Assembly (NCBI GenBank): GCA_963716745.1
Contig: OY970320.1
Coordinates: forward strand, 3,040,001 to 3,104,000
Length of the DNA: 64,000 nucleotides
Source of the DNA: an uncultured Gemmatimonadaceae bacterium
GTDB taxonomy: Bacteria > Gemmatimonadota > Gemmatimonadetes > Gemmatimonadales > Gemmatimonadaceae
Reading direction: 5' to 3'
Position 1 is the stretch's first letter. Each line of letters begins with the position of its first letter. Of the stretch, positions 3 to 55,581 are shown piece by piece. The notes under the pieces were generated by a model. That model was not told the DNA's origin. It did no database searches and saw nothing but the letters and a program-made list of their open reading frames with translations. The position numbers and the translations under genes are program-made.

Positions 3-986
3 GGCAACGCCGTGATCTTCAAGCCGGCGGAGGACGTGCCGCACACCGGCCACGTGCTGGTGGAGATCCTGCTCGAGGCGGGATTGCCGCCCGAGGTGAT
101 CCAGCTGGTGCACGGACTCGGCGAGACCGTGGGCGCGGCGATCGTGGCGCATCCGGAAGTGCCGGTGATCTCGTTCACCGGTTCGACGGCCACCGGCGCG
201 ATCGTGGGCGAGACGTGCGGCCGCATGCACAAGCGGCTCTCGCTCGAGATGGGCGGCAAGAACGCGATGATCGTGATGGACGATGCCGATCTGGATCTCG
301 CGCTCGACGGCGTGCTCTGGGGCGCGTTCGGCACCACCGGACAGCGCTGCACCGCGACGAGCCGCCTGATCGTGCAGCAAGGCGTGCACGACACGCTGCT
401 CGACCGTCTCGCCGCGCGCGCGGCATCGCTCAAGCTCGGCGACGGGCGCAAGGCGGGCACCGAGGTCGGGCCGCTCATCCACGACGAATCGCGCGAGAAG
501 GTGGAGCGGTACATCGAGATCGGCAAAGGGGAGCAGGCGTCGCTCGTCACCGGCGGCGCGCGCGCGACGGGCGCGGGCCTCGAGCACGGCTTCTTCTTCC
601 AGCCCACGATCTTCGCCGGCGTGAAGGCGGGATCGCGTCTCGAGCAGGAGGAGATCTTCGGCCCGGTGCTGTCGGTGATCAAGGTGAGAGACGCCGACGA
701 GGCGATCGCGGTGAACAACGATGTCAAATACGGGCTCTCATCATCGTTCTATACGCGAGATGTGAACCTCGCCTTCCGCGCGCTGAACGAGTTGGACAAC
801 GGCATCACGTACATCAACGCTCCCACGATCGGCGCGGAGGCACACCTGCCGTTCGGCGGCGTGAAGCAGACGGGGAACGGACATCGCGAGGGCGGGTGGG
901 AAGTGTATGAGTTCTATTCGGAGACGAAGGTCGGATACATCGACTACTCTGGATCGTTGCAGCGGGCGCAGATCGACAACTATTGA
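3..986 (+). CDS. Aldehyde dehydrogenase family protein (5' partial)
   Basis: Motifs SFTGS, LEMGGKN, GQRCTA (catalytic Cys), EEIFGPV and PFGGVKQTG; reading frame is open to the window edge. Confidence 0.95.
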   Translation, partial: GNAVIFKPAEDVPHTGHVLVEILLEAGLPPEVIQLVHGLGETVGAAIVAHPEVPVISFTGSTATGAIVGETCGRMHKRLSLEMGGKNAMIVMDDADLDLALDGVLWGAFGTTGQRCTATSRLIVQQGVHDTLLDRLAARAASLKLGDGRKAGTEVGPLIHDESREKVERYIEIGKGEQASLVTGGARATGAGLEHGFFFQPTIFAGVKAGSRLEQEEIFGPVLSVIKVRDADEAIAVNNDVKYGLSSSFYTRDVNLAFRALNELDNGITYINAPTIGAEAHLPFGGVKQTGNGHREGGWEVYEFYSETKVGYIDYSGSLQRAQIDNY

Positions 987-1105
987 CGACGGACGTTGGA
1001 CGTTAGCGAACGGCATGACAATTGATCGTCTGGTGCGGGCGCGCGTTCAAGAGTCGAATTGAATTTGTTCTCATGCCTCGCACCAACGTCTAACGTCAGT
1101 TTTTT
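986..1105. repeat. Palindromic intergenic element A (GACGTTR heptamer arms plus GGCATGACAA core), followed by a T-run
   Basis: 992-1021 gacgttggacgttagcgaacggcatgacaa is an imperfect inverted repeat of 1068-1097; near-identical arms at 44758-44863. Confidence 0.85.
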
Positions 1106-1164
1106 GGTGCCTTGCGTGAGCCTTCACGGCTCGTCTTACTTATAGGCAGACACACCCGAGAATC

Positions 1165-1941
1165 ATGGACTCCCCCTCTCCCACCCCCAGCGCGCCGGGC
1201 CGCCCGGTCTCCGACGCGAAGCGCGCCGAGGCGCTGCGCGCGCTGAACAAGCGGCCATGGCGCTTGCGCTGGTTCGGCGAGTGGATGTTCATCGTCGTGT
1301 GCGCGGTGGTGGTCGTGTTCTTCGTCGCGCGCCCGTTCTTCGTGGAAGCGTTCAAGATCCCGTCGGGCAGCATGGAGAATACGCTGCTCGTGGGCGACTT
1401 CCTGTTCGTGAACAAGGCGGTGTACGGCGCGGAGGTCCCGTTCGTGCACATCCGGCTGCCGGCGCTGCAACATCCGAAGCGCGGCGACATCCTCGTCTTC
1501 GAATATCCACCGAACCCCGAGAAGGATTACGTGAAGCGCCTCGTGGGGCTGCCGGGCGACACGGTGGAGATGCGCGATGGCGTCGTGTTCATCGACGGCA
1601 CGTCGCTCGTGGAACCGTACGTGGTGCACACCGATCCCAATTCGGATCCGGGCGAAGCGGAGTTCGCGTGGCAGCGTCCGTTCCTGGTGCGCACGGCCGA
1701 AGCGAGCACGCATCCATCGCGTAACAACTGGGGTCCATTGGTCGTCCCAGAGGGGAATTACTTCGTGCTCGGGGACAATCGCGACAACTCGGCCGACAGC
1801 CGCTACTGGGGCTTCGTGCCGGATTCGCTCGTGCGGGGCCGGCCGATGTTCGTGTATTACAGCTACGAACCGGATGCGACGCGCCGGGTGCCGTGGCTCA
1901 CGAACGTTCGCTGGAGCAGGATCGGGACGCGGGTACGCTGA
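1165..1941 (+). CDS. lepB: Signal peptidase I
   Basis: TM segment, IPSGSME (catalytic Ser), YVKR (catalytic Lys), GDNRDNSADSRYWG. Confidence 0.95.
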   Translation: MDSPSPTPSAPGRPVSDAKRAEALRALNKRPWRLRWFGEWMFIVVCAVVVVFFVARPFFVEAFKIPSGSMENTLLVGDFLFVNKAVYGAEVPFVHIRLPALQHPKRGDILVFEYPPNPEKDYVKRLVGLPGDTVEMRDGVVFIDGTSLVEPYVVHTDPNSDPGEAEFAWQRPFLVRTAEASTHPSRNNWGPLVVPEGNYFVLGDNRDNSADSRYWGFVPDSLVRGRPMFVYYSYEPDATRRVPWLTNVRWSRIGTRVR

Positions 1942-2021
1942 CCGCGCCGGTGGCTATCTCGGAGATTCGCTCGCGCTAGCGCGCGAGGCCGCACTGTCCG
2001 TTTGCCGGAGCTGCTGGATCC

Positions 2022-2879
2022 ATGGCTGTCACCCCGCATCGCAAGTCATCGTACGACGAAGGCTCGCTCGACCAGTACCTGCGCGACATCAGCATCTATC
2101 CGCTGATCGACCGCGATGAAGAGGTGCGGCTCGCGCAGCTGATCCGGGTGAAGGATCGCGAAGCGCTCGACAAGCTCGTGCGGTCGAACCTGCGCTTCGT
2201 CGTGTCGGTCGCGAAGAAGTACCAGAATCAGGGCGTGGCGCTCTCCGACCTGATCAACGAGGGGAACCTCGGCCTCATTCGCGCCGCCCACAAATTCGAC
2301 GAGACGAAGGGCATCAAGTTCATCTCGTACGCGGTGTGGTGGATCCGCCAGGCGATCCTGCAGGCGCTCGCGGAGCAATCGCGCATCGTGCGCGTGCCGC
2401 TCAATCGCGCCGGGACGCTGTATCGCATCGGCAAGCGCGCCAACGCGCTGCTGCAGGAGCTCGGCCGCGAGCCCACGCACGAGGAGATCGCGCAGGAGAT
2501 GGACCTCACCGAGGAAGAGGTCGCGAAGACGATCTCGATCTCGCAGACGCATCTGTCGCTCGATGCGCCGCTCACGCCGGGCGAGGACAACCGGCTGCTC
2601 GACTATCTCCCCGACAATCTGAATCCCACGCCCGATGAGCAGACCTTCGAGAAGGCGCTCACCGAGGCGATCGAGGAATCGCTCTCATCGCTCAAGGAGC
2701 GCGAGGCGAAGATCCTGCGCCTCTACTTCGGGCTGGATGGCGAGGAGCCGATGACGCTCGAACAGATCGGCTCGCTGCTCGGCATCACGCGCGAGCGCGT
2801 GCGCCAGATCAAGGAGAAAGCGCTCTCGCGTCTCCGCCACGTGTCGCGGGCGCGCGCGCTCGAGTCCTTCCTCGGCTAG
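2022..2879 (+). CDS. RNA polymerase sigma-70 factor, RpoD/SigA family, short form lacking region 1.1
   Basis: NLRFVVSVAKKY, DLINEGNLGLIRA, SYAVWWIRQ, and region 4 TLEQIG...ITRERVRQI. Confidence 0.93.
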   Translation: MAVTPHRKSSYDEGSLDQYLRDISIYPLIDRDEEVRLAQLIRVKDREALDKLVRSNLRFVVSVAKKYQNQGVALSDLINEGNLGLIRAAHKFDETKGIKFISYAVWWIRQAILQALAEQSRIVRVPLNRAGTLYRIGKRANALLQELGREPTHEEIAQEMDLTEEEVAKTISISQTHLSLDAPLTPGEDNRLLDYLPDNLNPTPDEQTFEKALTEAIEESLSSLKEREAKILRLYFGLDGEEPMTLEQIGSLLGITRERVRQIKEKALSRLRHVSRARALESFLG

Positions 2880-2888
2880 ACGCGCGCC

Positions 2889-3389
2889 ATGGCCGCGAAC
2901 GCCTCTTTCGATGTGACCACTGGCGTGGACCTGCAGGAAGTGGACAACGCGGTGAACCAGGCGCAGAAGGAGATCGCGCAGCGATACGACTTCAAGGGCA
3001 CGAAGGTCGCGCTGGAATTCAAGCGCGCCGAGAACAAGCTGCTCCTCGTGGCCGACGACGACTTCAAGATGCGCGCGCTGCACGACGTGCTCCATGCGAA
3101 GCTCGTGAAGCGCGGTGTGCCGGTGAAGAACCTCGACATCGGCGAGATCGTGCCGGCCGGCGGCGATACGGTGCGCCGCGAGATCGCGCTCAAGATGTCG
3201 CTGGACGGCGAGACCGCGAAGAGAGTCGTGGCGGCGATCAAGGAAGCGAAGATGAAGAAGGTGCAGGCGTCCATCCAGGGCGAGCAGGTGCGGATCACGT
3301 CGCCATCGCGCGACGAGCTGCAGGAAGTGATCGCGCTCCTGCGCGGGAAGGACTTCGGCGTGGAGCTGAAGTTCGGGAACTACCGCTGA
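2889..3389 (+). CDS. yajQ: YajQ family nucleotide/c-di-GMP-binding protein
   Basis: SFDV, QEVDNAVNQA, RYDFKG, VQASIQGEQVR, C-terminal FGNYR. Confidence 0.95.
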   Translation: MAANASFDVTTGVDLQEVDNAVNQAQKEIAQRYDFKGTKVALEFKRAENKLLLVADDDFKMRALHDVLHAKLVKRGVPVKNLDIGEIVPAGGDTVRREIALKMSLDGETAKRVVAAIKEAKMKKVQASIQGEQVRITSPSRDELQEVIALLRGKDFGVELKFGNYR

Positions 3390-4516
3390 GCCTGTAGCGC
3401 CGCCGGCGCGCTCGCGTCCGGGCGTCCGAGCATCATCGCCGCGAACTCCTCGCCCAGCGCGCTCACGCGGCGCGCTTGCGTGCACAGCCCGTCGGCGCGC
3501 ACCACGCTGCCCGCCACACTCGCGCCGTGCTCCCAGCCCACGCTGTCGGTGAATGACGGCCACGCGAATCCGTGCACCGGTGCGCCGCCCGCCAGCAACA
3601 CCAGCGACTCGTCCCACGCGGCCCGCAGCGTGCTCACGGCGCCGCCCGCCGCTGGCATGGGCGCGACGGGGAAGAGCGGCCGGCGGTGCCGCGCGTGCAT
3701 CGCGGCCGGCGCGCTCACGCCGAGCCACCGGCGGTCGCTCGCACGCGACTCGCGGAAGAGGCTCAACTCGTTCGACGGCACGCCGTGCCGCTGCAGATAT
3801 GCGCCGGCGCCGGGTGCGAGCTCATGCCCGAGCGTGAGATCCAGCGCGAGGTGACGCAGCGCCTCCCACCGGCCGCTCTCGCCCGCCTCGCAGTCCGTCG
3901 GCGGCGGCGCCACCTCGCTCTCGCGATGCACGATCACCGCGTTCGGCCGCTCGCTCAGCAGCGTCTCCACGGCGAGCTCGTGCGCCATGCACAGATTCCG
4001 CAGCGCCCGCACGAACGCCGAATCGCTGTGCTCACACTCATTCCACTCGCCGCGCAGCGCCGACGCCGTGGCGCACTGCATGATGTCGCTCACGGGCGTG
4101 AAATATCGGATCCACGGGAAGCGCCGTGCGAACGCGCGCGCGTATTCGGCGAACAGCACCGGGAACGCAGGGTCCTGAAATCCGCCGAGCCACGAAGGCA
4201 CGCCGAAGCGGCACAGGTCGGCGATCACCTCCACGCCCAGGTCGCGCAGGCGGAGCAGCGGCTCCTCCACGCATTCCCACTCGTGATGATCGGGCGCCAG
4301 ATGCGTGCGATAGTACGGCGCGCCATACCAGAGGGCGTCGAGGCCGAGCATGTGCGCATGCTCGAGATCCTCCTCCCAGCGCGCGTAGTGCCCCGTGCGG
4401 TCCAATTGATCGAGGCGCGCTCCGCCGGCGAGCGTCGGACAGCTCGGATCGATCGCGGATGCGAAGAGGAAGGGCATGCGGGGCGGGCGGCGGCGGGTGT
4501 CTGTGAAGGACTCCAC
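3380..4516 (-). CDS. Glycoside hydrolase family 1-like protein with degenerate catalytic motifs
   Basis: GHYARWEEDL, DLCRFGVPSW, FAEYARAFARRFPW; the expected TPVNE acid/base motif reads TPVSD. Confidence 0.65.
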   Translation of the reverse strand: MESFTDTRRRPPRMPFLFASAIDPSCPTLAGGARLDQLDRTGHYARWEEDLEHAHMLGLDALWYGAPYYRTHLAPDHHEWECVEEPLLRLRDLGVEVIADLCRFGVPSWLGGFQDPAFPVLFAEYARAFARRFPWIRYFTPVSDIMQCATASALRGEWNECEHSDSAFVRALRNLCMAHELAVETLLSERPNAVIVHRESEVAPPPTDCEAGESGRWEALRHLALDLTLGHELAPGAGAYLQRHGVPSNELSLFRESRASDRRWLGVSAPAAMHARHRRPLFPVAPMPAAGGAVSTLRAAWDESLVLLAGGAPVHGFAWPSFTDSVGWEHGASVAGSVVRADGLCTQARRVSALGEEFAAMMLGRPDASAPAALQAQR

Positions 4517-4575
4517 TCGCCGCCGGAGGTCACCGCGCGGTTGAGCGCTTCCGGCGCCCCCGCTAGCTTCACCGC

Positions 4576-20223: not shown

Positions 20224-20382
20224 GGCGGGAGTACTGCGTCGTGCGTGGTTGCTCACTAAGGGCGGGAGTACCGAGTCGTGCGTCGAGATGCAACCGGGGC
20301 CTCACGCCCAAGGTGGGCCACCACGCACGACTCGGCACGCACGCCATTCGTGGGCCTCTACGCACGACTCGGTACGCACGCC
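20224..20382. repeat. Four 23-bp repeat units (two direct, two inverted) forming a nested palindrome (element H)
   Basis: Units at 20224-20246 and 20261-20283 (+), 20323-20345 and 20360-20382 (-); consensus GGCG(G/T)G(A/C)GTACCGAGTCGTGCGT; 37-bp spacing on both sides. Confidence 0.85.
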
Positions 20383-26073: not shown

Positions 26074-26201
26074 AACTGCCGGGAACCGGTTACCGGGAAC
26101 CGGTATGGCATGACAATGCATTCCCTAACGACAGCGAGTAGTGCTGTTATGGAATGCGTTGTCATGCCTCACCGGTTCCCGGCAACCGGTTCCCGGTAGT
26201 T
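26074..26201. repeat. Palindromic intergenic element C between convergent genes
   Basis: Outer arms 26074-26104 and 26171-26201 (29/31 inverted), inner GGCATGACAA 26107-26116 and TTGTCATGCC 26159-26168, self-complementary interior. Confidence 0.9.
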
Positions 26202-26206
26202 TGCAG

Positions 26207-26872
26207 TTAGTTCGCCGTCCCTTGATCGAACACTCTCACTCCCGGCGGCAGCGTGAACACGAACGCGCCATCGCTCACCGTCACATTCATCTCGATCGCA
26301 TCCACGCGCACCCGCCGCACGCTGCCGTTCGCGTCCTTCGTCTCGAACTGGCGCACAATGCCGTCGGCATCATCGATCCACAGTTTCGCGAAGGTGAACG
26401 GCGCACCGCGACTCTTTGGCGTGAGCCCCACAATGTGCGTGGCGTGCCCGCCCACCGTGGCCGCGCCGCCATCGGTGATGGTGAAACGCTGCGCCGGTGA
26501 ATCCAGCAGCCACGTCGTGAAATCGGGGATGTTCGCGCTCCCATCGCCCACCGTCATCTTGATCACCTGCCCGGGATTGGTGCTCGGCAAGTAGATCCAC
26601 ACCGCCTTCCCATCGGACACGATGCGGTCGCCGGCGGGCTGCGTGAAGCTCACGGCGTAGCGCCCGGGCAGGCGCTGGAGCATCTCGCCCTTGGAATCCA
26701 CGCCGTGGCCGGTGAGCGGATTGTCGACGGTCTGCGTGAAGGTCACGCGCGCGGTCTTCATATTCGAGTACACCGCGGCGGCGCGCTCGAGCGTGGCGGT
26801 CGCGGTCTGACCGCGCGCCGCGCAGACGGCCGCCGCCAACGCGAGCGCCGCGCCGGCGGCCGCGATCCTCAC
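26207..26872 (-). CDS. lolA: Outer-membrane lipoprotein carrier LolA family protein
   Basis: Signal peptide, [31 protein letters not shown] overlaps the aroF stop. Confidence 0.8.
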
Positions 26873-27925
26873 TTGCCCGCCGCCGCGCCCGCGAGCGCCG
26901 GCGCGGGCGTGATCGTGCGGCCGATCGCCGCCGCGATCGCGCGCAATTCTCCCACCAGCTGCGCGAATTGCTCCGGATACAGCGACTGCGCGCCGTCCGA
27001 CAGCGCGCGCTCGGGATTCGGATGCACTTCCACCATCACGCCGTTCGCCCCGGCCGCGATCGCGGCGCGTGCCATCGGGATCACCTTGTCGCGGATGCCC
27101 GGTGCCGTGGCTCGGATCGGCGATGATCGGCAGGTGCGACATCTGCTGCACGATCGGGATCGCCGTGAGATCGAACATGTTGCGCGCGATCGTGTCGAAC
27201 GTGCGCACGCCGCGCTCGCATAATATCACGTTCGGATTCCCGCTCGCGAGTACATACTCCGCGCTCAGCAGCAATTCCTGGATCGTGGCCGCGAGGCCGC
27301 GCTTGAGGAGCACCGGCTTGCCCAGCTTCCCGCAGAACTTGAGCAGCGAATAGTTCTGCATGTTGCGCGCGCCGATCTGGATGCAGTCGCCGTACTCGGC
27401 CACGAGTTCCGCGCCCTCCTCGTCCATCGCTTCGGTGACGATGGCGAGCCCCGTCTCCCGCCGCGCGATCGCCAGCAGCTCGAGCCCCTTCTTGCCGAGC
27501 CCCTGGAAGGAGTACGGCGAACTCCGCGGCTTGAACGCGCCGCCGCGCAGCGCCGAAGCGCCGGCCGCCTTCACCATGCGCGCCGCGGTCACGATCTGCT
27601 CCTCGCTCTCCACCGAGCAGGGGCCCGCGATGATCGGCACTTCGCTGCCGCCAACGTGCACGGTGCCGCCGATGGAGACGATCGTGCTCTCCGCCTTCCA
27701 TTCGCGCGACACCTGCTTGTACGGCTGCGTGACGTGGATCACCTGCGCGACGCCCGAGAGCGCCTCGATGCGCGACGCATCCACGCGCCCGTCGTTGCCC
27801 ACGAGGCCCACGGCGGTGCGCTGGGCGCCCGGCATGGGCCGCGCCTCGTAGCCCATCTCCTCGATCACGCGCACCACGGCCTCGACCTCGGCCGGCTTCG
27901 CGCCATGTTTCATCACGACCAGCAT
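26869..27925 (-). CDS. aroF: DAHP synthase type I-beta (frameshift near 27097)
   Basis: [40 protein letters not shown]; then [14 protein letters not shown] in a second frame. Confidence 0.93.
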
Positions 27926-41167: not shown

Positions 41168-41251
41168 TTAGTACCGCGAACGGCGCGTTAGCGTTGGCGT
41201 TGGATACGGTGCGTCCCTAACGCCAACGCTAACGCGCCGTTCGCGGTACCA
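41168..41251. repeat. Perfect 31-bp inverted repeat (element E)
   Basis: 41171-41201 gtaccgcgaacggcgcgttagcgttggcgtt equals the reverse complement of 41219-41249; 17-nt loop. Confidence 0.92.
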
Positions 41252-44750: not shown

Positions 44751-44869
44751 GACGTTAGACGTTGGACGTTAGCGATCGGCATGACAACGGATGATGTACG
44801 ACTCTCGGGCCTACTCGCGCATGACACAATTCGTTGTCATGCCTCCCACCAACGTCTAACGTCCGTCGT
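44751..44869. repeat. Palindromic intergenic element B (sister of element A)
   Basis: 44758-44787 matches 992-1021 at 29/30; 44837-44863 matches 1071-1097 at 26/27. Confidence 0.9.
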
Positions 44870-44875
44870 GAACAG

Positions 44876-44946
44876 TTGCCCCCGGTGGATTCGAACCACC
44901 ATTACCGGATCCAAAGTCCGGAGTCCTGCCATTGGACGAGGGGGCA
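44876..44946 (-). tRNA. tRNA-Gln (TTG)
   Basis: Acceptor stem TGCCCCC/GGGGGCA, anticodon arm CCGGA-CTTTGGA-TCCGG, T-loop GGTTCGAATCC; CCA not encoded. Confidence 0.96.
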
Positions 44947-44986: not shown

Positions 44987-44994
44987 GCACGAAC

Positions 44995-45874: not shown

Positions 45875-46888
45875 GCCGCGGCGGTCTCGGCGCGCTGCAG
45901 ATCGCGCAACCGGAATCCGAGTTTCGTGAAGTAGTAGATGCCGATGAGCGTGATCGGGATGAAAGTGAGGACATGGAATCCGATCGCCCAGCTGGTAGCG
46001 AGCGACCGGTCAACGCCGTAGATGCACCGAGCCCCTGCTGGCCGACCCATCTCGAACACGCCGAAGAACCCCGGCACGCTCGGCACCGCCACGCCGATCG
46101 CGATCAATCCCTGCAGCAGCAGCGCCGCGCTGAAGGGCGCGGTGATGCCGACGGCCTTGAACGCGCAGGAGGAAGGCGACGCCGTTGAGCAGCCAGTGCG
46201 CCACCGTCCAGAGGAGTACACGGAAAAAGCGCGACGGATGGCGGAGCACGCCGAGCCCCGACGCGAAGGAGAGCAGGAGCTCGCGCCCCTGCGCCTCGTA
46301 GCTGCGGCGCGACCTTCCGCGCGAGCCATTCGTACACCGTGATCATCACCTTAGGAAAGAAGACGATCAGGTAGAGCGCTCCAAGCGCCGCCGTCGCGAC
46401 GAGCGCGCCTACCAGCACGATGTCGCCCACCTGCCAGCCTCGCCAATTGCACGTCCGGGAACGACGGCGACATCATCGCCACGAGCATGAGCATCAGCAC
46501 CACGAAGGCGTCGAACACGCGGTCCACCGCGAGCGACGCGAACGCTGCGGAGAACGTGACGCGCTCCGTTTCCTTCGAGAGCACGTACGCGCGCGCGAAC
46601 TCACCGGCGCGCGCGGGCAGCACGTTGTTCCCCGCCATGCCGATCGCCGTAGCGCGCCACAGATCCTTGAGCGGAATGCCCGGCGCGATCGGATCGAGGA
46701 TCACGCGCCAGCGGATGGCGCGCAGCGGGAAGATCAGCGTGCCGGTGACGGTCGCCGCGAGCAGATACCAGATGATTCGCGTCGCGCAGATTGCCCCAGA
46801 TCACCGCGGGATCCTGTCCGCGGAACGTCCACCAGAGCAGCCCGGCGCTGAGCGTGACGCCGAGCAGGGTGCGCCAGCGCGAGCTCAC
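45871..46888 (-). CDS. Lysylphosphatidylglycerol synthase TM / flippase-like membrane protein (several frameshifts)
   Basis: NNVLPARAGEFAR, DRVFD and VPSVPGFFGVFE spread over at least four reading-frame pieces. Confidence 0.8.
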
Positions 46889-46894
46889 GCTGGC

Positions 46895-48649
46895 CTACTC
46901 GACGAGCGCGAGATCGAGCAGGTCGAACAGTTCGGCCACGTCTTCGGGCGTGGGCGGCGTTCCCGCGGCCTGCCACTCGTGGCGCAGTTCGGCGGCGCGC
47001 TCGAGCGCGGCGCGCCCGCGGTAGAGCAGCTGGTCGATCGGCACCGTGCCGTCGTCGTTCGGCACGATCGACGGCGCGCTCATCGGCTGGTCCTCGAGGC
47101 GGCGCAGCCCGGCGATGCCATCCTGCAGGAACGCGCGCAGCGATTCGCCGCTCGGTTCGGCGCCTGGCGCCCGGCGCGCGGCGCTCGGCGGCGCGGGCTC
47201 GGGCTCGACGCTCGGGGCCGAAGGCCATGCAGGGAAGGAGCCCGCGGGCGCCTGGGACATCGGAACGGCCGGCCGCTCGAGCGAGCGGCGCGGCGGAGGC
47301 GCGATCGGCGCGGCGGGCGGCGCCACGGGAGCCACGGGACGCACCGCCATCGGCGGCGTCGGCGTGCGCATGGGCGGGATGTCGCCGGCGAGCAGCGCCA
47401 CTGTGGAGCGGCCGGCGGTCTGCGCACTACGCGGCGCGGCGAGCTGCTCGAGCAAGCGCGCGAGCTGTTCGGGGCGCGTCTCGGGATCGGCGAGTTTCGT
47501 GGCGGCGGTGTCGAGCGCCGTGAGGCCCGCATCGTTCAGCGTCGCGACCTTCACGCTCCACTCGGCGGCGAAGCGCGCGACCTGCCGCTCACCGAAGCTG
47601 CTAGCCGCGCTGCCGAGCGCGCGCAGCGCGGTGCGGAGTTCGCGCGCCGTGTGATCGCGCGCGTCGGGCGCACGCGTGCCGCGCGCATCGCTCACCACGC
47701 GGCGCAGATGCTCGGCGAGGCTCACCACTTCCATGCGGAAGCGCTCGGCGGCGGTCGTGGGCGGCGCGCTCGCGGCGCTCACGACGTGCGGACCGGCGTC
47801 GTCGAAGAAGAGTTGTGCGATCGGGACGATGCGGTCGGCGCTGCCGCCTTCATCCGGGAGCGCCGCCATCGCGTTGTGGAAGGCGAGCACTTCGGGCGCG
47901 CCGGGGACGGGGCGGCCGCGCTGGCCAATGTCGCGCGACGCGCGGCGCAGCACCGCCGCGGCGGTCGCGAACAGCGATTTCTGTTTGGCGCTCGGCGTGG
48001 GGTGCGGCGCGCCGAGCTCGAGGCCCTTGAGCGCGCGCTCCACCGCGTCCACCACATCGGGCAGCGGCGGCATGTCCTTCAGATCGGCGACGCCGCGCAA
48101 CGCACGCACCCGCGCCGCGAGCGCGGCGATCACGCTCGTGTCCTCGGGCGATGCCACGAGCAATTCGAGCGAGCGCGCGAGGTCGGCCGTCTCGGCGGCG
48201 AGGAAATTCGCGCCGGTGAGCGGCTCGTTGTCGGCGACGGGCGTCGGGGGCGGCACGAATGGCGTTCCGCCGGGGCCGGGCGCGAGGCGATCGAGCTCGG
48301 CAGTGCGCGCCTGGGCGAGGCGGTCTTCCGCGGGCGTCCATTCGCGCACGGCGCGCACGAGGATGCGCAGATCGTCCACCGCGGCCACGACCGCGGCGCT
48401 CGCGGCGGGCGTCCAGCCCATCGCGCGATTGCGCAGCGCGCGCGCGACGCGCTCGAGGGCGCCGGCGATGTCGGCGATGCCGTACTGGCGGGACATCGTG
48501 GCGCTGCCGCGCAGGGCGCGCGCGTAGCGGCCAAACGAATCGGCGTTGGGGCCGGCCGGACCGGCGGATGTGAGCAGGTTGTCGAGGCGCTCGATGTACT
48601 CGCTCGCTTCGACGATGAAGAAGTCCAGCACTCCGGCCGATGCCGTCAT
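46895..48649 (-). CDS. Hypothetical protein with repeated Hpt-like helical domains
   Basis: LDFFIVEASEYIERL...ARALRGSATM resembles CheA P1 but lacks the His; similar repeats downstream. Confidence 0.6.
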   Translation of the reverse strand: MTASAGVLDFFIVEASEYIERLDNLLTSAGPAGPNADSFGRYARALRGSATMSRQYGIADIAGALERVARALRNRAMGWTPAASAAVVAAVDDLRILVRAVREWTPAEDRLAQARTAELDRLAPGPGGTPFVPPPTPVADNEPLTGANFLAAETADLARSLELLVASPEDTSVIAALAARVRALRGVADLKDMPPLPDVVDAVERALKGLELGAPHPTPSAKQKSLFATAAAVLRRASRDIGQRGRPVPGAPEVLAFHNAMAALPDEGGSADRIVPIAQLFFDDAGPHVVSAASAPPTTAAERFRMEVVSLAEHLRRVVSDARGTRAPDARDHTARELRTALRALGSAASSFGERQVARFAAEWSVKVATLNDAGLTALDTAATKLADPETRPEQLARLLEQLAAPRSAQTAGRSTVALLAGDIPPMRTPTPPMAVRPVAPVAPPAAPIAPPPRRSLERPAVPMSQAPAGSFPAWPSAPSVEPEPAPPSAARRAPGAEPSGESLRAFLQDGIAGLRRLEDQPMSAPSIVPNDDGTVPIDQLLYRGRAALERAAELRHEWQAAGTPPTPEDVAELFDLLDLALVE

Positions 48650-48707
48650 CCGATCTCCGACAGATGGTGGTGGTACCCTGCGAAGCTATCCGGCGCCCGG
48701 CGGTGGG

Positions 48708-49446
48708 TCAACGAGAAATCCCGCGTGCCGCATCCATCGCCGCGCGCATCTCACGCACCGCCGCGGCGATCCCGATGAACACCGAGCGGCTCACAATGGA
48801 ATGACCGATGTTCAGCTCTTCGATCTCGGGGATCGCGGCCACCGGCGCGACGTTCCGCACCGTGAGCCCGTGTCCCGCATGCACCGCCAGTCCGAGCGCG
48901 GCACCCAACGATGAAGCCTCCGCAAGGGCGGCGAGCGTGGCGCTGTCGTGCGGGTGGTGCGCGTACGCGCCGGTGTGGAACTCCACCGCGTCCGCGCCCA
49001 GATCGCGCGAGCGCCGCACCGCGTCCTCCGCGGGGGCGATGAATAGACTCGTACGCACCCCCGCGCGTTTCAGGCGCGCGAGTCCGGCGGTGAGACGCGC
49101 GGGATCGCGGGCGACATCGAGTCCGCCTTCGGTCGTGACCTCCTCGCGCCGCTCGGGCACGAGCGTCACCTGGTGCGGCCGCAGGCGCTCGGCGATCGCG
49201 AGCATCTCGTCGGTGAGCGCCATCTCGAGGTTGAACTCGGTGCGGACGGCGCGCGCGAGGAGCTCGATGTCGTCGTCCTGCATGTGGCGCCGGTCCTCGC
49301 GCAGATGCGCGGTGATGCCGTCGGCGCCGGCTTGCTCGCAGAGTGCGGCCGCGGCGACGGGGTCGGGCTCGTCGGTGCGCGCGCGCCTGCCGGATCGTGG
49401 CGACGTGATCGACGTTGATATAGAGACGCTGCAGGGTTGCTCGCAT
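48708..49446 (-). CDS. pdxJ: Pyridoxine 5'-phosphate synthase (frameshift near 49385)
   Basis: INVDHVATIRQAR then HLREDRRH, TTEGG, HAGHGL, ELNIGHSI. Confidence 0.94.
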
Positions 49447-49494
49447 GTTGGCTGTCCGCTAGTTTCGCTCGTGTCTGCCAACCGGGCGAGCCGA

Positions 49495-49965
49495 ATGACA
49501 CGCACACTGCTCATGATGCTGATCCTGGCCGGCTGCGCGTCCACGCCGGCCTACAAGGGCAACCCGGCGAACGCACCGCCGACGACGGCGGGCGACCCCG
49601 GCGCCGCGACGCCCGATCTCGCGGTGAAGGCGTTCATGGCCGCGATCAATGCGCAGGACGTGGATGCGCTCGGCCTCATCTGGGGCTCCGAGAAGGGACC
49701 CGCCGTGGACCTCCCGGCGAAGGACCAGCTCCCGCAGCGCGCGATGATCATGCAGTGCTACCTCAAGCATGACAGTTATCAGATCGTGAACGATGTGGTG
49801 GCGAGCGAGAAGGTGCACGTCATGACGCTCTCGGTCACCAAGGGCACGTTCACGCGCCAGACCACTACGAAGGTGTTCCTCGGGCCGAACAACCGCTGGT
49901 TCGTCGGCGAGACCGATCTGCAGCCGCTCAAGGACCTGTGCTCGGGGCAGAGCACCACGAAGTGA
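49495..49965 (+). CDS. Hypothetical lipoprotein
   Basis: MTRTLLMMLILAGC lipobox; coding-like codon pattern. Confidence 0.75.
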   Translation: MTRTLLMMLILAGCASTPAYKGNPANAPPTTAGDPGAATPDLAVKAFMAAINAQDVDALGLIWGSEKGPAVDLPAKDQLPQRAMIMQCYLKHDSYQIVNDVVASEKVHVMTLSVTKGTFTRQTTTKVFLGPNNRWFVGETDLQPLKDLCSGQSTTK

Positions 49966-50000
49966 GCGCAGGGGCCGGGAACTCATCGCCGCCTGGGTGA

Positions 50001-50411
50001 TTAATATTCGGTGAGTTCGATGAGCACGCCCGCCGTGGACGACGGGTGCAGGAAGGCGATGCGTTTGCCTTCGGCGCCCACGCGGGGGGTCTCGTCGATC
50101 AATCGCAGTCCGGCGGTCCGGCAGCGCGCAAGCGCCGCCTCGAGGTCGGGCACGGCGAAGCAGAGATGATGGATCCCGGGCCCGCGCTTTTCGATGAACT
50201 TGGCAATGGGCGAATCGGGGAGGGCGGGCTCGAGGAGTTCGACCAGCGTGTCACCGGCCGCGAGACCGGCGATGTGCGCGCCGTCGGCGTCATCCAGCGG
50301 TGCGTCCTCGAGGCCGAGGACGTCGCGGTATAAGGGCAAGATCGTCTCGAGCGAGCGGACGGCGATGCCGATGTGGGCAAGCGTCACGCCGCGGCGGGAT
50401 GCAGGTTTCAC
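50001..50411 (-). CDS. mce: Methylmalonyl-CoA epimerase (VOC family)
   Basis: HIGIAV, VELLEP, GPGIHHLCF, AFLHP, GVLIELTE. Confidence 0.9.
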   Translation of the reverse strand: MKPASRRGVTLAHIGIAVRSLETILPLYRDVLGLEDAPLDDADGAHIAGLAAGDTLVELLEPALPDSPIAKFIEKRGPGIHHLCFAVPDLEAALARCRTAGLRLIDETPRVGAEGKRIAFLHPSSTAGVLIELTEY

Positions 50412-50497
50412 GACGATCGCGCTCCGGGAACGGGGGGCGACAGGAATCTAACGAGAGATGCGCGGCGAGCGAGTCCGCGCCGGAGAGAGAGCACTCA

Positions 50498-50827
50498 ATG
50501 TCGAACACAGCAGCAGTGACGGATGCGGATTTCGAGACCGAGGTGGAGAAGCACGACGGGCTGACGCTCGTCGACTTCTGGGCGACGTGGTGCGGACCAT
50601 GCCGCATGGTGGGTCCGATCGTCGACCAGCTCGCGACCGAGTACGCGGGGAAGGCGAAGGTGATGAAGATGGATGTGGACGCGAACATCCGGACGTCGAC
50701 GCGCTACAACGTGCGGAGTATCCCGACGATCCTGTTCTTCAAGGGCGGGAAAGTGGTGGATATGGTCGTCGGCGCGATGCCGAAGGCGACGTACGAGGCG
50801 AAGATCCAGCAGCACACCGCTGCCTGA
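50498..50827 (+). CDS. trxA: Thioredoxin
   Basis: DFWATWCGPC, SIPT. Confidence 0.96.
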   Translation: MSNTAAVTDADFETEVEKHDGLTLVDFWATWCGPCRMVGPIVDQLATEYAGKAKVMKMDVDANIRTSTRYNVRSIPTILFFKGGKVVDMVVGAMPKATYEAKIQQHTAA

Positions 50828-50835
50828 ACTGCAGG

Positions 50836-50882
50836 GGCGCGTCTAGCAACTGAGCGTGTGGCACGGCGAGGGCGCGTGTGGG
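50836..50882 (+). repeat. Solo degenerate copy (G) of the four-helix-bundle flanking repeat arm
   Basis: 40/47 identity (one gap) to the reverse complement of the inner part of arm 55516-55581. Confidence 0.8.
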
Positions 50883-50903
50883 AGATCCCACACGCGCCTT
50901 TTT
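50871..50903 (+). terminator. Intrinsic terminator after trxA
   Basis: GGCGCGTGTGGG-AGAT-CCCACACGCGCC hairpin followed by TTTTT. Confidence 0.85.
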
Positions 50904-50909
50904 CGCGCT

Positions 50910-51404
50910 CTAGAACGTGCGGCGCTCCTGGATCTGGTTGACGTCGATCCCGCCCGGCACCGTGTAGACGGCGGTGACGTCGAGTGAGTAGGAACTCTTG
51001 ATGATCACCATCCCCTCGAAGAAGGGATTGTTGTTGAGCTTGAGCCTGTTCTCGACGTCCTGGCAATCGGTCGCGAGGCCGAAATCGGGGGCGAGAGAGT
51101 CACTGGAGATCGGCTTGATGAATTGCGGCCTCTCCGCTCCCGGCGGGAGCGTGATGATGAGCCCTTTGGTGAAGTGGATCACTGAGTCGGTCTCGTTCGC
51201 GATGTTGATGGTGGTGGCGTAGCGCTGAGTCACGACCCCGGCGCTAACGGCCGCGGGCTTCGAGGTCGTCGCGATGCCGCACACCATCTTGACCGTGTAC
51301 TCATACCAGAATTGCCGCAGGGGCGGCGGTGCGGATGTGGCGCCCGTGAGCGCGACGGTGAAGGAGGCGAGGAACACGAGCGTGGCGGCGCGGGCACGTG
51401 ACAT
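50910..51404 (-). CDS. Hypothetical secreted protein
   Basis: Signal peptide, beta-rich body, two Cys (KMVCG, TDCQ); GGGGA SD upstream. Confidence 0.75.
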   Translation of the reverse strand: MSRARAATLVFLASFTVALTGATSAPPPLRQFWYEYTVKMVCGIATTSKPAAVSAGVVTQRYATTINIANETDSVIHFTKGLIITLPPGAERPQFIKPISSDSLAPDFGLATDCQDVENRLKLNNNPFFEGMVIIKSSYSLDVTAVYTVPGGIDVNQIQERRTF

Positions 51405-51555
51405 ATGATCCCCCTATGGCGATGAAAGCGAATTCACGCTACGGCGCTCGAACGATGACCGCAACTGCCGGTGATCGGCGCTTGTTGTGCTTCGTCCCAT
51501 TGCGTCCCGCTGGGCCGGAATGCACGCTAGATGCAACTTCTCACCGGAGCCCGTC

Positions 51556-52629
51556 ATGTCTGACAGTCCGTCCTCCCGCGACATCAGCGCGGTGCTTCAG
51601 AATGGCCGCGGCTCGCGCCGAGCGTTCCTGAAGACGAGCGCGGCCACGGCGCTGGCGAGTGCGGCGCTCGTGGCGTGCAAACCCACCGATCAGGCGCCGG
51701 CGGCCGCCGCCGCCGGCGACAGCGCGCACGCCGGCATGACCGACTCCGCCACGGCGCACGCGGCCGTGGAGCAGATGGACTCGATGCACGAGAAGGGCGT
51801 GAAGGCCTTCCCCGCCAAAACGGAAGGGAAGGGGAACATGCCGCTCGCGCCGACGATGGACGGCAAGGTGAAGGTCTTCCACCTCACGGCCGCTCCGGTG
51901 AAATGGGAAGTGACGCCGGGCACGCTCGTCGATGCGTTCGCATACAACGGGCAGGTGCCGGGGCCGCAGATCCGGATCAAGGAAGGCGACCGGGTGCGCA
52001 TCGTCCTGAAGAACGATCTGCCCGAGAGCACGGCGATCCATTGGCACGGCGTGGAAGTGCCCAACGATATGGACGGCGTGCCATACATCACGCAGCCGCC
52101 AGTGAAGCCGGGACAGTCGTTCACGTACGAGTTCACGTTGAAGAATTCCGGCTCGCACATGTACCACTCGCACCACAACTCCACGATGCAAGTGGGCAAA
52201 GGCCTGCTCGGCGCTTTCATCGTAGAACCGAAGGTGCCGCGCGCGATCGAGAGAGCCGACATTGACTACGTGATGATCATCAACGATTCCACCGGCGGCT
52301 TCACGCTCAACGGCAAGGGATTCCCCGCCACCGAGCCGATCGTGGCCAAGAAGGGACAGAAGGTGCGCATCCGCTTCATGAACGAAGGGCAGATGATCCA
52401 CCCGATGCATTTGCACGGCATGCCGATGCTCGTGATCGACAAGGACGGCTATCCGCAGCCGATGCCGTGGAAGTGCGACACGCTGAACGTCGCGCCCGGC
52501 GAGCGGTGGGACGTGATCGTGGATGCGCAGGCGGTGGGGACGTGGGCGTTCCATTGTCACATCCTTTCGCACGCGGAGAGTCAGATGGGAATGTTCGGGA
52601 TGGTCACGGCGCTGATCATCCAGGCGTGA
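51556..52629 (+). CDS. Tat-exported two-domain multicopper oxidase (small laccase-like)
   Basis: SRRAFLK Tat motif; HWH, HSH, HPMHLH, HCHILSH...M. Confidence 0.9.
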   Translation: MSDSPSSRDISAVLQNGRGSRRAFLKTSAATALASAALVACKPTDQAPAAAAAGDSAHAGMTDSATAHAAVEQMDSMHEKGVKAFPAKTEGKGNMPLAPTMDGKVKVFHLTAAPVKWEVTPGTLVDAFAYNGQVPGPQIRIKEGDRVRIVLKNDLPESTAIHWHGVEVPNDMDGVPYITQPPVKPGQSFTYEFTLKNSGSHMYHSHHNSTMQVGKGLLGAFIVEPKVPRAIERADIDYVMIINDSTGGFTLNGKGFPATEPIVAKKGQKVRIRFMNEGQMIHPMHLHGMPMLVIDKDGYPQPMPWKCDTLNVAPGERWDVIVDAQAVGTWAFHCHILSHAESQMGMFGMVTALIIQA

Positions 52630-52640
52630 CGGCGTGCCTT

Positions 52641-52763
52641 GACTGCCGATGGTCGGGAGCCGATCGTCGATGAAGCATGAAATCTGATTCCGTTACTGCT
52701 AGAGAAGGTTATGGAATTTGTTGTCATTCCTAAACGAATATCGGCAATCGAATATCGGCCGTC
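52641..52763. repeat. Degenerate palindromic element D
   Basis: Arms 52641-52669 and 52735-52763 (21/29 inverted, 14-bp period); 52708-52730 matches the element C core at 20/23. Confidence 0.7.
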
Positions 52764-52777
52764 GGGGTTCAAGTGGT

Positions 52778-54945
52778 ATGACCGCCTACGTCAGAGATGA
52801 TTTCAACCGCGCCGACGGCCCCGTCGGCGCGGCACTCACAGGACAAACGTGGTCCGCGAGCGGCGGCGCGGCGATCGCGAACAACACGCTCGCGCTGCCA
52901 CCGAACGCGATGGCGAGCATTGACGTGGGCGCCGCGGCATACACCGTCTGCTTCACGCCCACCCCGGGCTCCAAGAACGTGGAGCAGAATTGCCGCTTCC
53001 GGTTCGCCATGAAGGATGACCGGAACTGGGCGCAGTTCTATAGCCTGAATGGCGTCTGGTGCTACGTCGAGATGATCGATGGCGCGCAGCGCGGATTCGT
53101 GCAGCTGGCGCGGACGAAGAAATGGTCGAGCGGAATGCCGATCCTGGTGACGATGGGCGGAGCATCGTGGTCCGCGCGGCTGATGGATGATGCGTTCGAG
53201 GGCGCCGTGAGCGCCGCGCTGAGAGCGAACACGCGGATCGCGTTCGCGGGCTCGACCGGGGCGGCGGAGACGGTGGACAACGTCATCGTGTGGAGTGCGG
53301 TGCCGAACCCGATGTTCGTTGGGCCAACGGGGAGTCCGGCGGGAGAAGGTTCCCGCGCCGTGCCGATGGATCTCCAGAGCGCGCTCAATTTCGCGCCGCC
53401 CGGCACGACGATCCGCATGCTCGACGGGATGTACACGCCTGCCGACGGGCGCGGCTTCGTCTTCCACGTCTCGGGCACGCCGACAGCGCGCATCCGCCTC
53501 ATGCAGGACTCGCCCGGACTCGGGCGCGCGATCATCGATGGCTACGTGCCCGGCAAGCCGATCGCGCCGAGTCAGGGGACGCTCAATCTGTTCGGCCAGC
53601 GCGGCGGGCATTACGTGGATCTGTACGGGTTCCGCGTCACGAATTCGGATCCGACGCGGAGTTTCGACGGCGTGAAACAGTGCAGCGACGGTGGCGTGCA
53701 GATCGTGGATGCCATCGCGACGAATCTCTATCACATCATCTCCGACAATCACGGCGTCAACAACTTCTCCCTGTTCGGTTCGAACGAGGGCGGCGTGATG
53801 TACTACGGGCTCCTGTCATTCAACAACGGGAATCCGCTCGGCTTTCCCGGCTTCAGCGGATACGGCATTTACGAGCAGTCCGATCCGCACGGACAGGACC
53901 GCAAGACCGTGCAGGCGTGCATCCTCTGGAACACGTACGGACAGGACGTGGCGCCGGGGAACGCGTACCTCATCCACTCATACGCGCATCACGGGAACCT
54001 CGAGAACCAGGATTTCCTCGACAACATCCTCCTGGCGTCGCCCGCGCGAGGCGGCGCGATCGCGGACTACACCGCGTGGGCACAGCCCATTCTCTGGGGC
54101 TCGTTCCGGAACCCGATCGTCGCGGGAACGTTCCAGCGGAACGTGACGATGAAGCCATTCTCCGTGCGCGTGCTGCACGGGCAATCGTCGATCGGCTACA
54201 GCGCGCACGACAACCATGACGTGCAGGTGCTGGACAATCATTTCATGGGCGGCTGCGCCGTGAACGCGTTCCGCTCGGCGGCGATGCGCGGGAACACGTT
54301 CGTCGCGACGGGCACCGTGAACGGCGGAAAGGGCGGCAAGCATCCCGACGGCGCCGGATGCTGGGAAGTGGTGCGGAACACCGGCGTGCCGAGCGATCTC
54401 ACCGATTGGACGTGGGGCGCGAACACGTACTACGACGACGTCGAGCGGCCGGACGGCGCGTTGCCGAAGTATGACACGCTGTTCTCGGTGGATGGCGAGA
54501 GCAGCATGGCGTTCGACCAGGTGGTGAACGACCACGGACCGTGGCGGAATCGCGTGGGCGACATGAAGTCCACGCTCAAGATGGGATTGCCGGCGGAGAA
54601 CGTGATCAAGGTGAATACATCGCCGTTCACCGATACCGGTATCCTCGCGACCGTGGGTGTAGTGAATTACACCAAGGCGGCGACGATCGATCTCGGGAAT
54701 TGCGGGATCGCGAATGGGACGAAGTACGAGGTGTACCACATCGCGGATCTGCTGTGGAGCGCGGAGGGGAAGTTCATTGGGGTGCCGACGGCTTCGGGCA
54801 CAATGAGGCCGGCGGAACGATCAAAGTGCTGGGAATGCCGAGCAAGACATTCCAGACGCCGGTGGGGACGGGAAGGTTCGCGCCGGCGAATGCGCAGGCC
54901 ACGATGCCAGGAGAGATCGCGGCGTATGTCATCGTTCGGGCGTGA
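52778..54945 (+). CDS. Large hypothetical protein, N-terminal beta-sandwich-like region plus right-handed beta-helix (probable frameshift near 54805)
   Basis: DDFNRADG start; FVGPTGSPAGEGS...LQSAL...PGTTIRMLDGMY typical of beta-helix N-caps; N/G-rich repeats; better C-terminus in the frame ending 54945. Confidence 0.65.
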
Positions 54946-54948
54946 GTG

Positions 54949-55581
54949 GGCTTTAGTACCGCTGAAACAGCGCGTTTGGCAACTGAGCGTATGGTACGGC
55001 TCGGCGTGAGTAGGAACTACGCCTTGGCGACGAGCTCTTCGCGGGCGCGGCGCACCAGTACGGTGAGGATCCGGGCGAGAGTGGTGTGTAGGGACATGCG
55101 CGAGTCGGTGTCGGCAGGGCCGAGGGCGTCGCGGGCTTTGTAGTACCAGTCGCGCGACTCGCGAGCGGAGCCGAGGGCGTACTCGTAGAATCGGCCGCGA
55201 TCCTTGCGGCCCAGGCGACTGTAGCCCTCCGCGATGTTCACGCTAATCGATGCGGTTGCCCGTGCCATTTGATCCGCGACGTGATCGTAGCCGCCGCGCT
55301 GCAAAAGGACCGCCGCATCCGTGCGCCCCAAATCGCCCGCGTAGAGCGCGGAGCGATATACCCGCAGCCCCCAAAGCGCATCCGCGCGAATATGCTCCGG
55401 CACCGCGGCTTCCCACTCGTCGTAAGTCACGAAGCACCTCAGTCAATCAGACCCCCGAGGATGTGCTGCGGCGGAATAGGGAGTGCCATCGAGCGATTGC
55501 GCGCCGAATCGTTCGCCCACTCACGCCCTGCCGTACCATACGCTCAGTTGCCAAACGCGCCGTTTCAGCGGTACTAAGGCC
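54949..55581. mobile_element. Candidate element: four-helix-bundle gene enclosed by a 66-bp inverted repeat
   Basis: 54949-55014 versus 55516-55581: 61/66 inverted identity; mobility is inferred, not shown. Confidence 0.55.
55017..55430 (-). CDS. Four helix bundle protein (23S rRNA intervening-sequence protein / Avd-like family)
   Basis: LRVY, DQMARATASISVNIAEGYSR, RFYEYALGSARE; GAGGTG SD before GTG. Confidence 0.9.
   Translation of the reverse strand: MTYDEWEAAVPEHIRADALWGLRVYRSALYAGDLGRTDAAVLLQRGGYDHVADQMARATASISVNIAEGYSRLGRKDRGRFYEYALGSARESRDWYYKARDALGPADTDSRMSLHTTLARILTVLVRRAREELVAKA

Follow-up and report, generated by a model that had tools for sequence, protein, structure and literature searches.

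Long intergenic palindromes and arm-enclosed four-helix-bundle genes in the genome of an uncultured Gemmatimonadaceae bacterium

A 64-kb stretch of the genome of an uncultured Gemmatimonadaceae bacterium (bases 3040001–3104000; hereafter the ‘window’) carries a series of long palindromes in the gaps between its genes, along with a gene for a small four-helix-bundle protein (55017–55430, minus strand) that is itself enclosed by inverted repeats. Do the palindromes and the gene belong to one system? A sequence-only reading of the window took them to be gene-carrying and gene-less forms of a hairpin-bounded, possibly mobile cassette. Working across the whole source genome (a single contig of 3,292,296 bases, 67% G+C, estimated completeness 89.8%; labelled G000 in our comparisons), we see that each gene of this type lies inside a pair of arms with a family of its own, and that gene-less copies of these arms are found at many other sites. 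Positions within the window are given as plain numbers and those of the complete contig are marked ‘genome’; the letters used for individual palindromes and for arm families do not correspond.

The PF05635 profile matches seven places in the genome, six of them above its cut-off and one a broken gene; a tblastn search with the six intact proteins returned no further clear four-helix-bundle copy, only one weak match (E 0.007). All seven genes are bracketed by inverted arms of 40–104 nt, and each pair of arms is of another family: the cassettes are located at genome 2133802–2134362 (arm family A), genome 568183–568728 (B), genome 2198533–2199069 (E), genome 2350836–2351537 (D), genome 1007704–1008408 (H), window 54939–55591 (K) and, for the broken gene, genome 2641108–2641775 (G). 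Each four-helix-bundle paralog, in other words, owns its arm family; the paralogs themselves are 25–57% identical to each other, with an invariant NIAEG motif.

The relationship between gene-carrying and gene-less forms is most apparent in family A. The arms of the family-A cassette, its GGCATAACAA/TTGTCATGCC core and the first bases of its inner stem are as in the gene-less copies, with the gene taking the place of the apical hairpin found in the latter—two forms of one kind of hairpin-bounded cassette, as had been proposed. Since arms, core and inner stem are common to both, it is to this cassette, some 0.9 Mb away, that the window palindromes A, B, C and D are related. The tie originally drawn between the window palindromes and the window's own cassette therefore stands for site G, and loosely for palindrome E (both also related to the broken cassette), but A, B, C and D belong with genome 2133802–2134362.

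Within this genome we saw no other type of cargo gene in the heptamer palindromes. Further inverted repeats with long loops resolved into separate palindrome pairs around ordinary small genes (for example genome 780802–781763, 1095170–1095964, 2163656–2164533 and 2354851–2355886), or enclosed no good open reading frame (ORF; genome 818662–819427), and tblastn found no four-helix-bundle remnant in these non-cassette repeats. Separately, two nuclease-like genes of the GxxExxY type (TIGR04256), only one of which is intact (genome 1094820–1095158 and 2952907–2953214), adjoin palindromes built of 9-nt units, so that heptamer palindromes are paired in this genome with four-helix-bundle genes, and nonamer palindromes with the GxxExxY gene family.

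The association between gene and arms extends beyond this genome. PF05635 genes occur in 21 of the 26 Gemmatimonadales genomes searched, at 0–12 per genome (one genome without any, G012, is counted in). In five congeneric genomes, strong arms surround 21 of 24 fetched loci, the remainder being one weak heptamer pair and two loci cut by contig ends. A search with one four-helix-bundle protein of the genome gave a cross-phyla set of 80 loci, 75 with enough flanking sequence, from Gemmatimonadota, Bacteroidota, Acidobacteriota, Chloroflexota, Cyanobacteria, Proteobacteria, Planctomycetota and candidate phyla; here the inverted-repeat score exceeds the 95th percentile of 266 control windows, taken from the same loci, in 61 of 75 cases, and reaches at least 40 in 32/75 loci as against 1/266 controls, although many of the loci are mutually related, such that these counts overstate their independence. 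The best arm period is 7 in 54 of the 61 (22/143 for control arms), and 57 of them have a G-rich 5' arm. Gene and upstream neighbour point the same way in 50/64 of the cross-phyla cases, and gene and downstream neighbour in 55/65, figures drawn from related loci and crude ORF calls. The claim that four-helix-bundle genes lie inside arms is thus borne out at all three levels.

How large is the population to which the window palindromes belong? We scanned the 3.29-Mb genome for inverted repeats (seeds of 10 nt, arms without gaps and at least 24 nt long, up to 900 nt apart) and obtained 364 loci (511 pairs), compared to 5 in a simulated genome generated from a second-order Markov model. The scan is conservative: palindromes A, B and D escape it. 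One of 14 family signature motifs is present in 286 of the 364 loci, so that the arms do indeed recur throughout the genome. The main families are A (motif CCGGGAACCG, 42 loci), B (CGGGAAG, 31), C (CGGGACT, 23), D (CAGTCAACAGT, about 30), E (GGCTGTC, 10), F (CTAGACGCTAGA, 17), G (GTACCGC..ACGGCG / GGCGTTGG, 23), H (ACCGAGTCGTGCGT, 24) and K (GCAACTGAGCGT, 22); the other signatures define small families, plus two made of nonamers. With a family-A profile, about 50 loci are picked up through 106 strand hits, and the two strands score alike.

The arms are inverted runs of 7-nt units, or in some families of 21-nt units. Dozens of copies, 80–90% identical, lie at unrelated sites, and 134-nt units have been copied whole from site to site with their loops included, which points to duplication and not to convergent selection; the cassettes have multiplied by duplication. 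Per family, gene-less copies outnumber gene-carrying ones by roughly 10–40 to 1. Beneath outer heptamers that differ, the core persists as a deep family marker, and families B and C have an inner segment in common while their heptamers are different. As an aside, these same two families contain four GGG runs spaced 4–7 nt apart, the spacing of a G-quadruplex motif. A symmetric AAC...GTT outer boundary (often AAC-N-R-C) delimits 101 of the 286 palindromes and 37 of the 42 in family A, as at 26074–26076 and 26199–26201, and the 5' arm is G- or purine-rich, whichever strand is read, in 188/268 palindromes (for example 26074–26129 and 41171–41208).

The palindromes are intergenic and lie preferentially at the 3' ends of genes. 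By crude gene calls, from which the coding fractions and the gap counts alike are taken and under which 82% of the genome is coding, 219 of the 268 short-loop family palindromes have a coding fraction below 30%; among gaps of at least 100 nt, a palindrome occupies 69 of 309 convergent (22%), 117 of 738 tandem (16%) and 29 of 321 divergent ones (9%). A further repeat family stands apart from those described above, with near-perfect arms of 28–85 nt (…CGCTTCGAGCCTCGCG…) around loops of 197–282 nt that hold no good ORF (genome 555025, 1062619, 1674771, 2671414, 2912766 and 3116302); it could be a miniature inverted-repeat transposable element (MITE) or a small RNA gene.

Turning to the window itself, all of the palindromes first listed are found in place, their strength (folded as single-stranded DNA and expressed as z against shuffles) grading from extreme in C and E to decayed in D. 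Palindrome C (26074–26201) is a full-length, gene-less member of family A: its 56-nt arms, 89% complementary, consist of CCGGGAA/CCGGTTA heptamers and enclose the GGCATGACAA core plus an inner hairpin, giving a fold of -61.9 kcal/mol (z -15.1). It occupies the convergent gap between a DUF2520 gene and a DAHP synthase gene. The frame adjoining it on this latter side (26207–27925, minus strand, 572 aa) combines DAHP synthase and LolA domains; this is either a fused gene or two genes that run together because a stop was missed or the sequence contains an error.

Palindrome A (986–1102), likewise gene-less, lies between an aldehyde dehydrogenase and a signal peptidase gene. Its outer arms of GACGTTr heptamers (992–1011 / 1080–1097) surround a core that reads GGCATGACAA at 1012–1021 and TTCTCATGCC at 1068–1077, followed by a T run at 1100–1105 (z -2.9). 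Palindrome B (44751–44866), gene-less with GACGTTr heptamer arms and a fold z of -5.0, has GGCATGACAA at 44778–44787 and TTGTCATGCC at 44834–44843, and is placed between a tRNA-Gln gene (44875–44946, minus strand) and the start of prs. In the decayed and gene-less palindrome D (52641–52768), a core-like TTGTCATTCC is found at 52721–52730 and the right arm is made of CGAATAT/CGGCAAT heptamers, to which the left is complementary only in part; its fold (z -2.5) was equalled by 1 of 200 shuffles. The inner core that A, B, C and D were thought to share is real and enriched, GGCATGACAA/TTGTCATGCC occurring 13+16 times in the genome versus 1.7 expected per strand. Their outer arms match themselves at a lag of 7 with values of 0.50–0.80, as compared to 0.45 or less at lags of 5, 6 and 8. 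Of the 7/14-nt periodicity claimed for them, the first component holds throughout; the second is seen in C, D and the left arm of B (0.71–0.88 at lag 14) but not in the short arms of A (0.17–0.20) or the right arm of B (0.43).

Palindrome E (41171–41249), gene-less and of family G, has 38-nt arms that are 92% complementary (z -12.7) and a motif, GTACCGC..ACGGCG..GCGTTGGCGTTGG, that places it in the arm family of the broken cassette at genome 2641108–2641775. The link once suggested between E and palindromes A and B comes down to GCGTTA versus GACGTTA units, a likeness of repeat units and nothing beyond. To these we add palindrome F (20224–20382), a gene-less member of family H (…ACCGAGTCGTGCGT…), the arm family of the cassette at genome 1007704–1008408. 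Site G (50836–50905), taken previously for a palindrome of the cassette arm, is instead a single copy of a family-K arm (50836–50870), after which come a small, terminator-like GC hairpin of 13 bp and a T run. The impression that most of the larger gaps hold a palindrome was too generous: by crude gene calls, and with A, B, D, F and G judged by eye, only about 8 of the 23 gaps of at least 80 nt do so.

The window's own cassette consists of a left family-K arm (54939–55014, 76 nt), the 137-aa four-helix-bundle gene in the loop, and a right arm of the same family and length (55516–55591); the two arms are 88% complementary to each other. Its protein matches PF05635 with 51.3 bits (cut-off 33.8), over profile positions 31–82 of 106 only, and TIGR02436 with 57.8 bits (cut-off 24), over positions 26–106 of 109. 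An AlphaFold model (predicted local distance difference test score 95) consists of four long helices, and a Foldseek search with it retrieves PDB entries 2gsc and 2rld at template modelling (TM) scores of 0.85–0.90. These two entries, Xanthomonas XCC0516 and Bacteroides BT_0352 respectively, have the same fold as our model and five chains each; a homopentamer is cited in PMC4990558. Both come from structural genomics and have no known function; relative to them, the window protein has about 20 additional N-terminal residues. A profile built from the six proteins of the genome also matches 2gsc and 2rld (E 9.5e-29 and 5.8e-11).

Three relatives could be compared with the window by BLAST: G002 (about 94% identical; assembly 63% complete), G004 (about 91%; 76% complete) and G005 (about 86%). 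G002 and G004 carry the cassette at the corresponding position, and G005 has it beside a rearrangement. Its gene is under purifying selection, with a ratio of non-synonymous to synonymous proportions (pN/pS) of 0.087 against G002 (8 synonymous and 2 non-synonymous differences) and 0.135 against G004 (34.5 and 13.5; pS 0.33). The left arm is 98.7% identical in both genomes and the right arm 96.1% identical in G002 and 97.4% in G004; arms that are 97–99% identical to those of G004 at a pS of 0.33 indicate that the arms of this master copy are under tighter constraint than neutral sites, which is not the case for the arms of gene-less palindromes A, B and C. When four sets of soil-metagenome DNA contigs were compared with window 46500–56400, only short matching pieces were found. 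Two contigs of the X3 metagenome join 55009/55016 to 55516 with 6–19 letters in between, but as such joins may stem from any gene-less family-K copy they are uninformative about excision at this cassette.

Two further observations concern the ground between site G and the cassette. A 164-aa ORF (50910–51404, minus strand), with no Pfam match, has no counterpart at the corresponding position of G002, G004 or G005. In G005, the 4 kb from site G to the left arm of the cassette (50836–55014) is on another contig, such that the breakpoints coincide with two copies of one arm family.

Are the palindromes, then, mobile? As sites, for the most part, they are not. A palindrome is present in 35 of 40 anchored orthologous comparisons with G002, G004 and G005 (0 of 200 for random 150-nt pieces), and the cassettes keep their sites among congeners. 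It is the sequence at the site that changes. The A gap retains its core in all three relatives while its outer heptamers differ in each genome; C is identical in G002, has the same core with other arms in G004, and gives way to another family in G005; E is unchanged in G002, whereas G004 and G005 have other families in its place; and the F gap holds a different palindrome in each of the four genomes. A further change of family is seen at genome 950033, where family A in G000 corresponds to another palindrome in G002 and G004, the swap falling within a shared GAAC...GTTC. Palindrome D is present in G002 and G004, and in the latter its gap is also where the family-K arm and GC hairpin module of site G is located. 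B has other outer arms around a retained core in G002 and G005, and is absent in G004 and G003; it is the only clear case of presence and absence. The description ‘mobile’ is hence to be divided, since the sites are mostly fixed in relatives—which would sooner have been expected of ordinary terminators or operators—while the sequences move by homogenisation or replacement. At genome 905935, the palindrome is replaced in G002 by a 1.58-kb sequence that comprises ordinary ORFs and no cassette.

That this turnover is concerted is seen in an alignment of family A, for which 28 of 30 collected sequences were used (two of another family were dropped). Orthologous sites of G000 and G004 are 68% identical (n=6), less so than paralogs within G000 (81%, n=78) or within G004 (73.5%, n=15), despite flanks of orthologous family-A sites that are 82–92% identical; between G000 and G002, orthologous sites are 89% identical (n=9). 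The nearest relative is a G004 paralog for four of the six G004 elements, and G004 copies at independent sites have derived arms in common (…GCCGGGAGTCGATGA…). Within a genome, then, the copies are homogenised, or a site passes to a different family. This is concerted evolution, or overwriting across a lineage, in which sequence is copied from one dispersed element to another, as opposed to plain vertical descent or classical transposition to new sites.

The closest known system is that of ORF-bearing intervening sequences in 23S ribosomal RNA, found in Coxiella burnetii, Leptospira, Xanthomonas and Brucella. Like the cassettes here, these place an S23p ORF in a long inverted-repeat stem loop and have heptameric repeats beside it: in the Coxiella 23S element, as described in PMC4990558, inverted repeats form the stem that holds the S23p ORF, the number of tandem heptameric repeats upstream of this ORF differs between strains, and RNase III cuts the stem. 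The same source records an older proposal that the ORF serves mobility, and that such elements are regarded as selfish. The cassettes described here differ in being located between ordinary protein genes, in having hundreds of gene-less copies and many families, and, for the window gene, in purifying selection where the Coxiella S23p gene is reported to be decaying (PMC4990558). In the literature found, this paper was the sole match linking heptamer repeats or intergenic palindromes with the S23p family; nothing was found on free-standing cassettes with gene-less families, on a one-paralog-one-family pattern or on concerted evolution, with subscription journals mostly uncovered. The novelty here lies in the one-gene-per-family pattern and in the concerted evolution of the copies. 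The only 23S gene (genome 231259–234217) spans 2959 nt against a 2925-position model and so has no large insert.

Could the palindromes nonetheless belong to a repeat system that is already known: attC sites of an integron, repetitive extragenic palindromic (REP) sequences and their paired forms (REPINs) with the REP-associated tyrosine transposase (RAYT), or targets of a diversity-generating retroelement (DGR)? We regard this as highly improbable, and as largely refuted by what follows. REP sequences and the mosaic elements built from them (BIMEs), REPINs with RAYTs, and MITEs are short intergenic palindromes of high copy number that prefer the 3' ends of genes; REP/REPIN-type systems include a rare ‘master’ copy in which such repeats flank a gene, with families that are gene-specific. 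The present elements are alike in their many intergenic palindromes near 3' ends, their gene-carrying form and their gene-specific families. They are unlike in that the cargo is a helical bundle of 120–140 aa with no known catalytic site, that arms of 40–100 nt are built of 7-nt tandem units with no target duplication seen, and that stable sites are rewritten in place. No RAYT-type Y1 transposase gene (PF01797) is matched in this one contig of 89.8% completeness, nor was any other transposase recognised with the elements, in accord with the earlier statement that none was present locally, and we reject this identification. Judged as MITEs or insertion sequences, the elements have inverted ends, with no direct repeat evident by eye at the flanks of family A, flanks that cannot be aligned in the filled-versus-empty pair at B, and a cargo that is no known transposase.

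The case for a retroelement rests on the protein, PF05635 being described in PMC10053308 as resembling Avd. Avd of DGRs, which shares its fold and superfamily with the window protein (TM 0.75–0.76 against Avd, 4dwl, and a DGR ribonucleoprotein, 8ub7; identity to Avd about 10%), takes part in a one-way copying of template over target (PMC10053308). Copying of this kind is rejected here, as no reverse transcriptase (PF00078) is matched in the contig; no template/variable repeat pair turned up either, in searches not aimed at one. An integron was suggested by the AAC...GTT ends, by a dense run of family-A copies at genome 864–951 kb, and by a TIGR02249 match to an integron-integrase-like gene (genome 2775564–2776508). 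The dense region, however, has large genes on both strands with the palindromes in convergent gaps, and so is not a cassette array; similar profile scores on both strands mean that the elements are symmetric, without the asymmetry of attC; and the integrase-like gene, remote from the dense region, is broken into three pieces (184, 80 and 62 bits, each below the cut-off) by an in-frame TGA and frame changes, with no cassette array beside it. The integron reading is likewise rejected.

The reading that we favour, tentatively and with a little less than even confidence, is that the window palindromes are part of a genome-wide population of intervening-sequence-type palindromic cassettes, with the protein as the factor that recognises the arms. 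Architecture and copying can be seen in the genomes directly; what we infer is which agent does the copying and what part the protein plays. In its full form a cassette is a long hairpin of heptamer arms around an inner stem peculiar to the family, with the four-helix-bundle gene (PF05635, Avd-like) in the loop; the short form has the same arms and inner stem without the gene. Copying would run from DNA to DNA between dispersed palindromes, by gene conversion or templated repair (for instance after breakage of a hairpin or cruciform), as opposed to reverse transcription or cut-and-paste transposition. The protein would belong to the cassette as the factor that recognises its cognate heptamer arms, probably forming a pentameric ring as its solved relatives do. 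An RNA that runs through the element may form the stem and become a substrate of RNase III, as is known for the ribosomal version, and host enzymes would supply the catalysis. Gene-less copies would then be non-autonomous derivatives, tolerated and possibly used as 3'-end hairpins. In a bolder version, which we consider quite improbable, each pentamer would read its own heptamer arms and direct the overwriting of resident palindromes at fixed sites by those arms; such ‘hairpin homing’, without reverse transcriptase or transposase, would be a free-living counterpart of the role of Avd in DGRs.

Several observations weigh against the favoured reading. The protein has no catalytic motif, its putative role being one of binding, and the S23p protein of Coxiella is reported as probably not expressed (PMC4990558). 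Orientations conflict, in that 4 of the 7 genes here are antisense to both neighbours as against the co-orientation seen across phyla. If families were equally likely, seven genes in seven of about ten heptamer families would arise by chance in around 6% of cases. Families C and F, which lack a gene in this genome, have an arm complementarity of 0.94, compared to 0.89–0.95 in families with a gene, so that intact arms do not depend on the protein. No family-A-type gene was found in the incomplete assemblies of G002 or G004 (63% and 76%) despite many family-A copies. No target-site duplication or clean empty site was found at B or at the family-A sites; the test for concerted evolution covers one family, with six orthologous pairs for G004; and fixed sites and a preference for 3' ends would fit a function for the host equally well.

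This last point leads to the main rival, which we judge rather unlikely: that the palindromes are 3'-end hairpins serving the host—terminators without a U-tract, stabilisers of mRNA, or RNase III sites—kept by selection at fixed sites, with the four-helix-bundle proteins as trans-acting binders or regulators of their own hairpin family, and sequence turnover as a by-product of gene conversion. Sites that are conserved even when their sequence is replaced (35/40), the order of preference from convergent through tandem to divergent gaps (22%, 16% and 9%), purifying selection on the window gene and the cutting of the ribosomal version by RNase III (PMC4990558) are all in its favour, as is the T run that follows the stem of palindrome A in three of four genomes. 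Such runs are otherwise rare, with 9 of 268 palindromes followed by one and 2 preceded by an A run, the exceptions in the window being A and the small hairpin at G, and canonical intrinsic terminators can be rejected for most elements on this basis. Nor does the stem bear the mark of transcription, since G:U-compatible mismatches in co-directional gaps are no more frequent in the sense than the antisense orientation (110 vs 117, p 0.69) and so leave no trace of selection on the fold of a sense transcript. Moreover, 29 divergent, promoter-side gaps are occupied too, B is dispensable in G004 and G003, and stems of 50–100 bp in 14 unrelated families exceed what a terminator needs. A host function would thus account for sites that stay fixed, but would leave unexplained how large and diverse the elements are and that they are copied as whole units.

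The opposite arrangement, in which the gene is a parasite of the hairpin, we hold to be unlikely. Here the palindromes would spread alone, by slippage, palindrome correction and gene conversion, and the genes would merely lodge in their loops, gaining insulation or processing from the stem as homing-endonuclease genes do in introns; the protein would do nothing for the palindromes. The intactness of families without a gene, which also rules out that these are decaying in this genome, would follow naturally, as would the excess of gene-less over gene-carrying copies (about 10–40 to 1) and the many family-A copies in incomplete genomes in which no gene of that type was found. Harder to accommodate is that each paralog, at 25–57% identity to the others, has an arm family of its own, and that the pairing of this gene family with period-7 arms holds across phyla (54/61). 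No other type of cargo is seen in the heptamer palindromes here, the GxxExxY gene adjoining arms of the nonamer type, and the arms around the window gene are conserved beyond its synonymous sites, which suggests that the arms matter to the gene or the reverse.

To our knowledge, the S23p/Avd-like four-helix bundles are among the most widespread bacterial protein families without a function, and the intervening sequences of ribosomal RNA have stood without an explanation since about 1990. A natural experiment is at hand in this genome: seven paralogs with their own arm families, hundreds of gene-less copies, and relatives in which the copies have been jointly rewritten. The question of what the protein does thereby becomes testable, as whether each one binds its own arms, and whether homogenisation depends on it. 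At about 290 intergenic palindromes in 3.3 Mb, with rearrangement breakpoints at the copies, elements of this kind also affect genome assembly and the prediction of operons in Gemmatimonadota and beyond. Hairpin homing, if true, would explain the ribosomal intervening sequences and the heptamer repeats found across many bacterial phyla.

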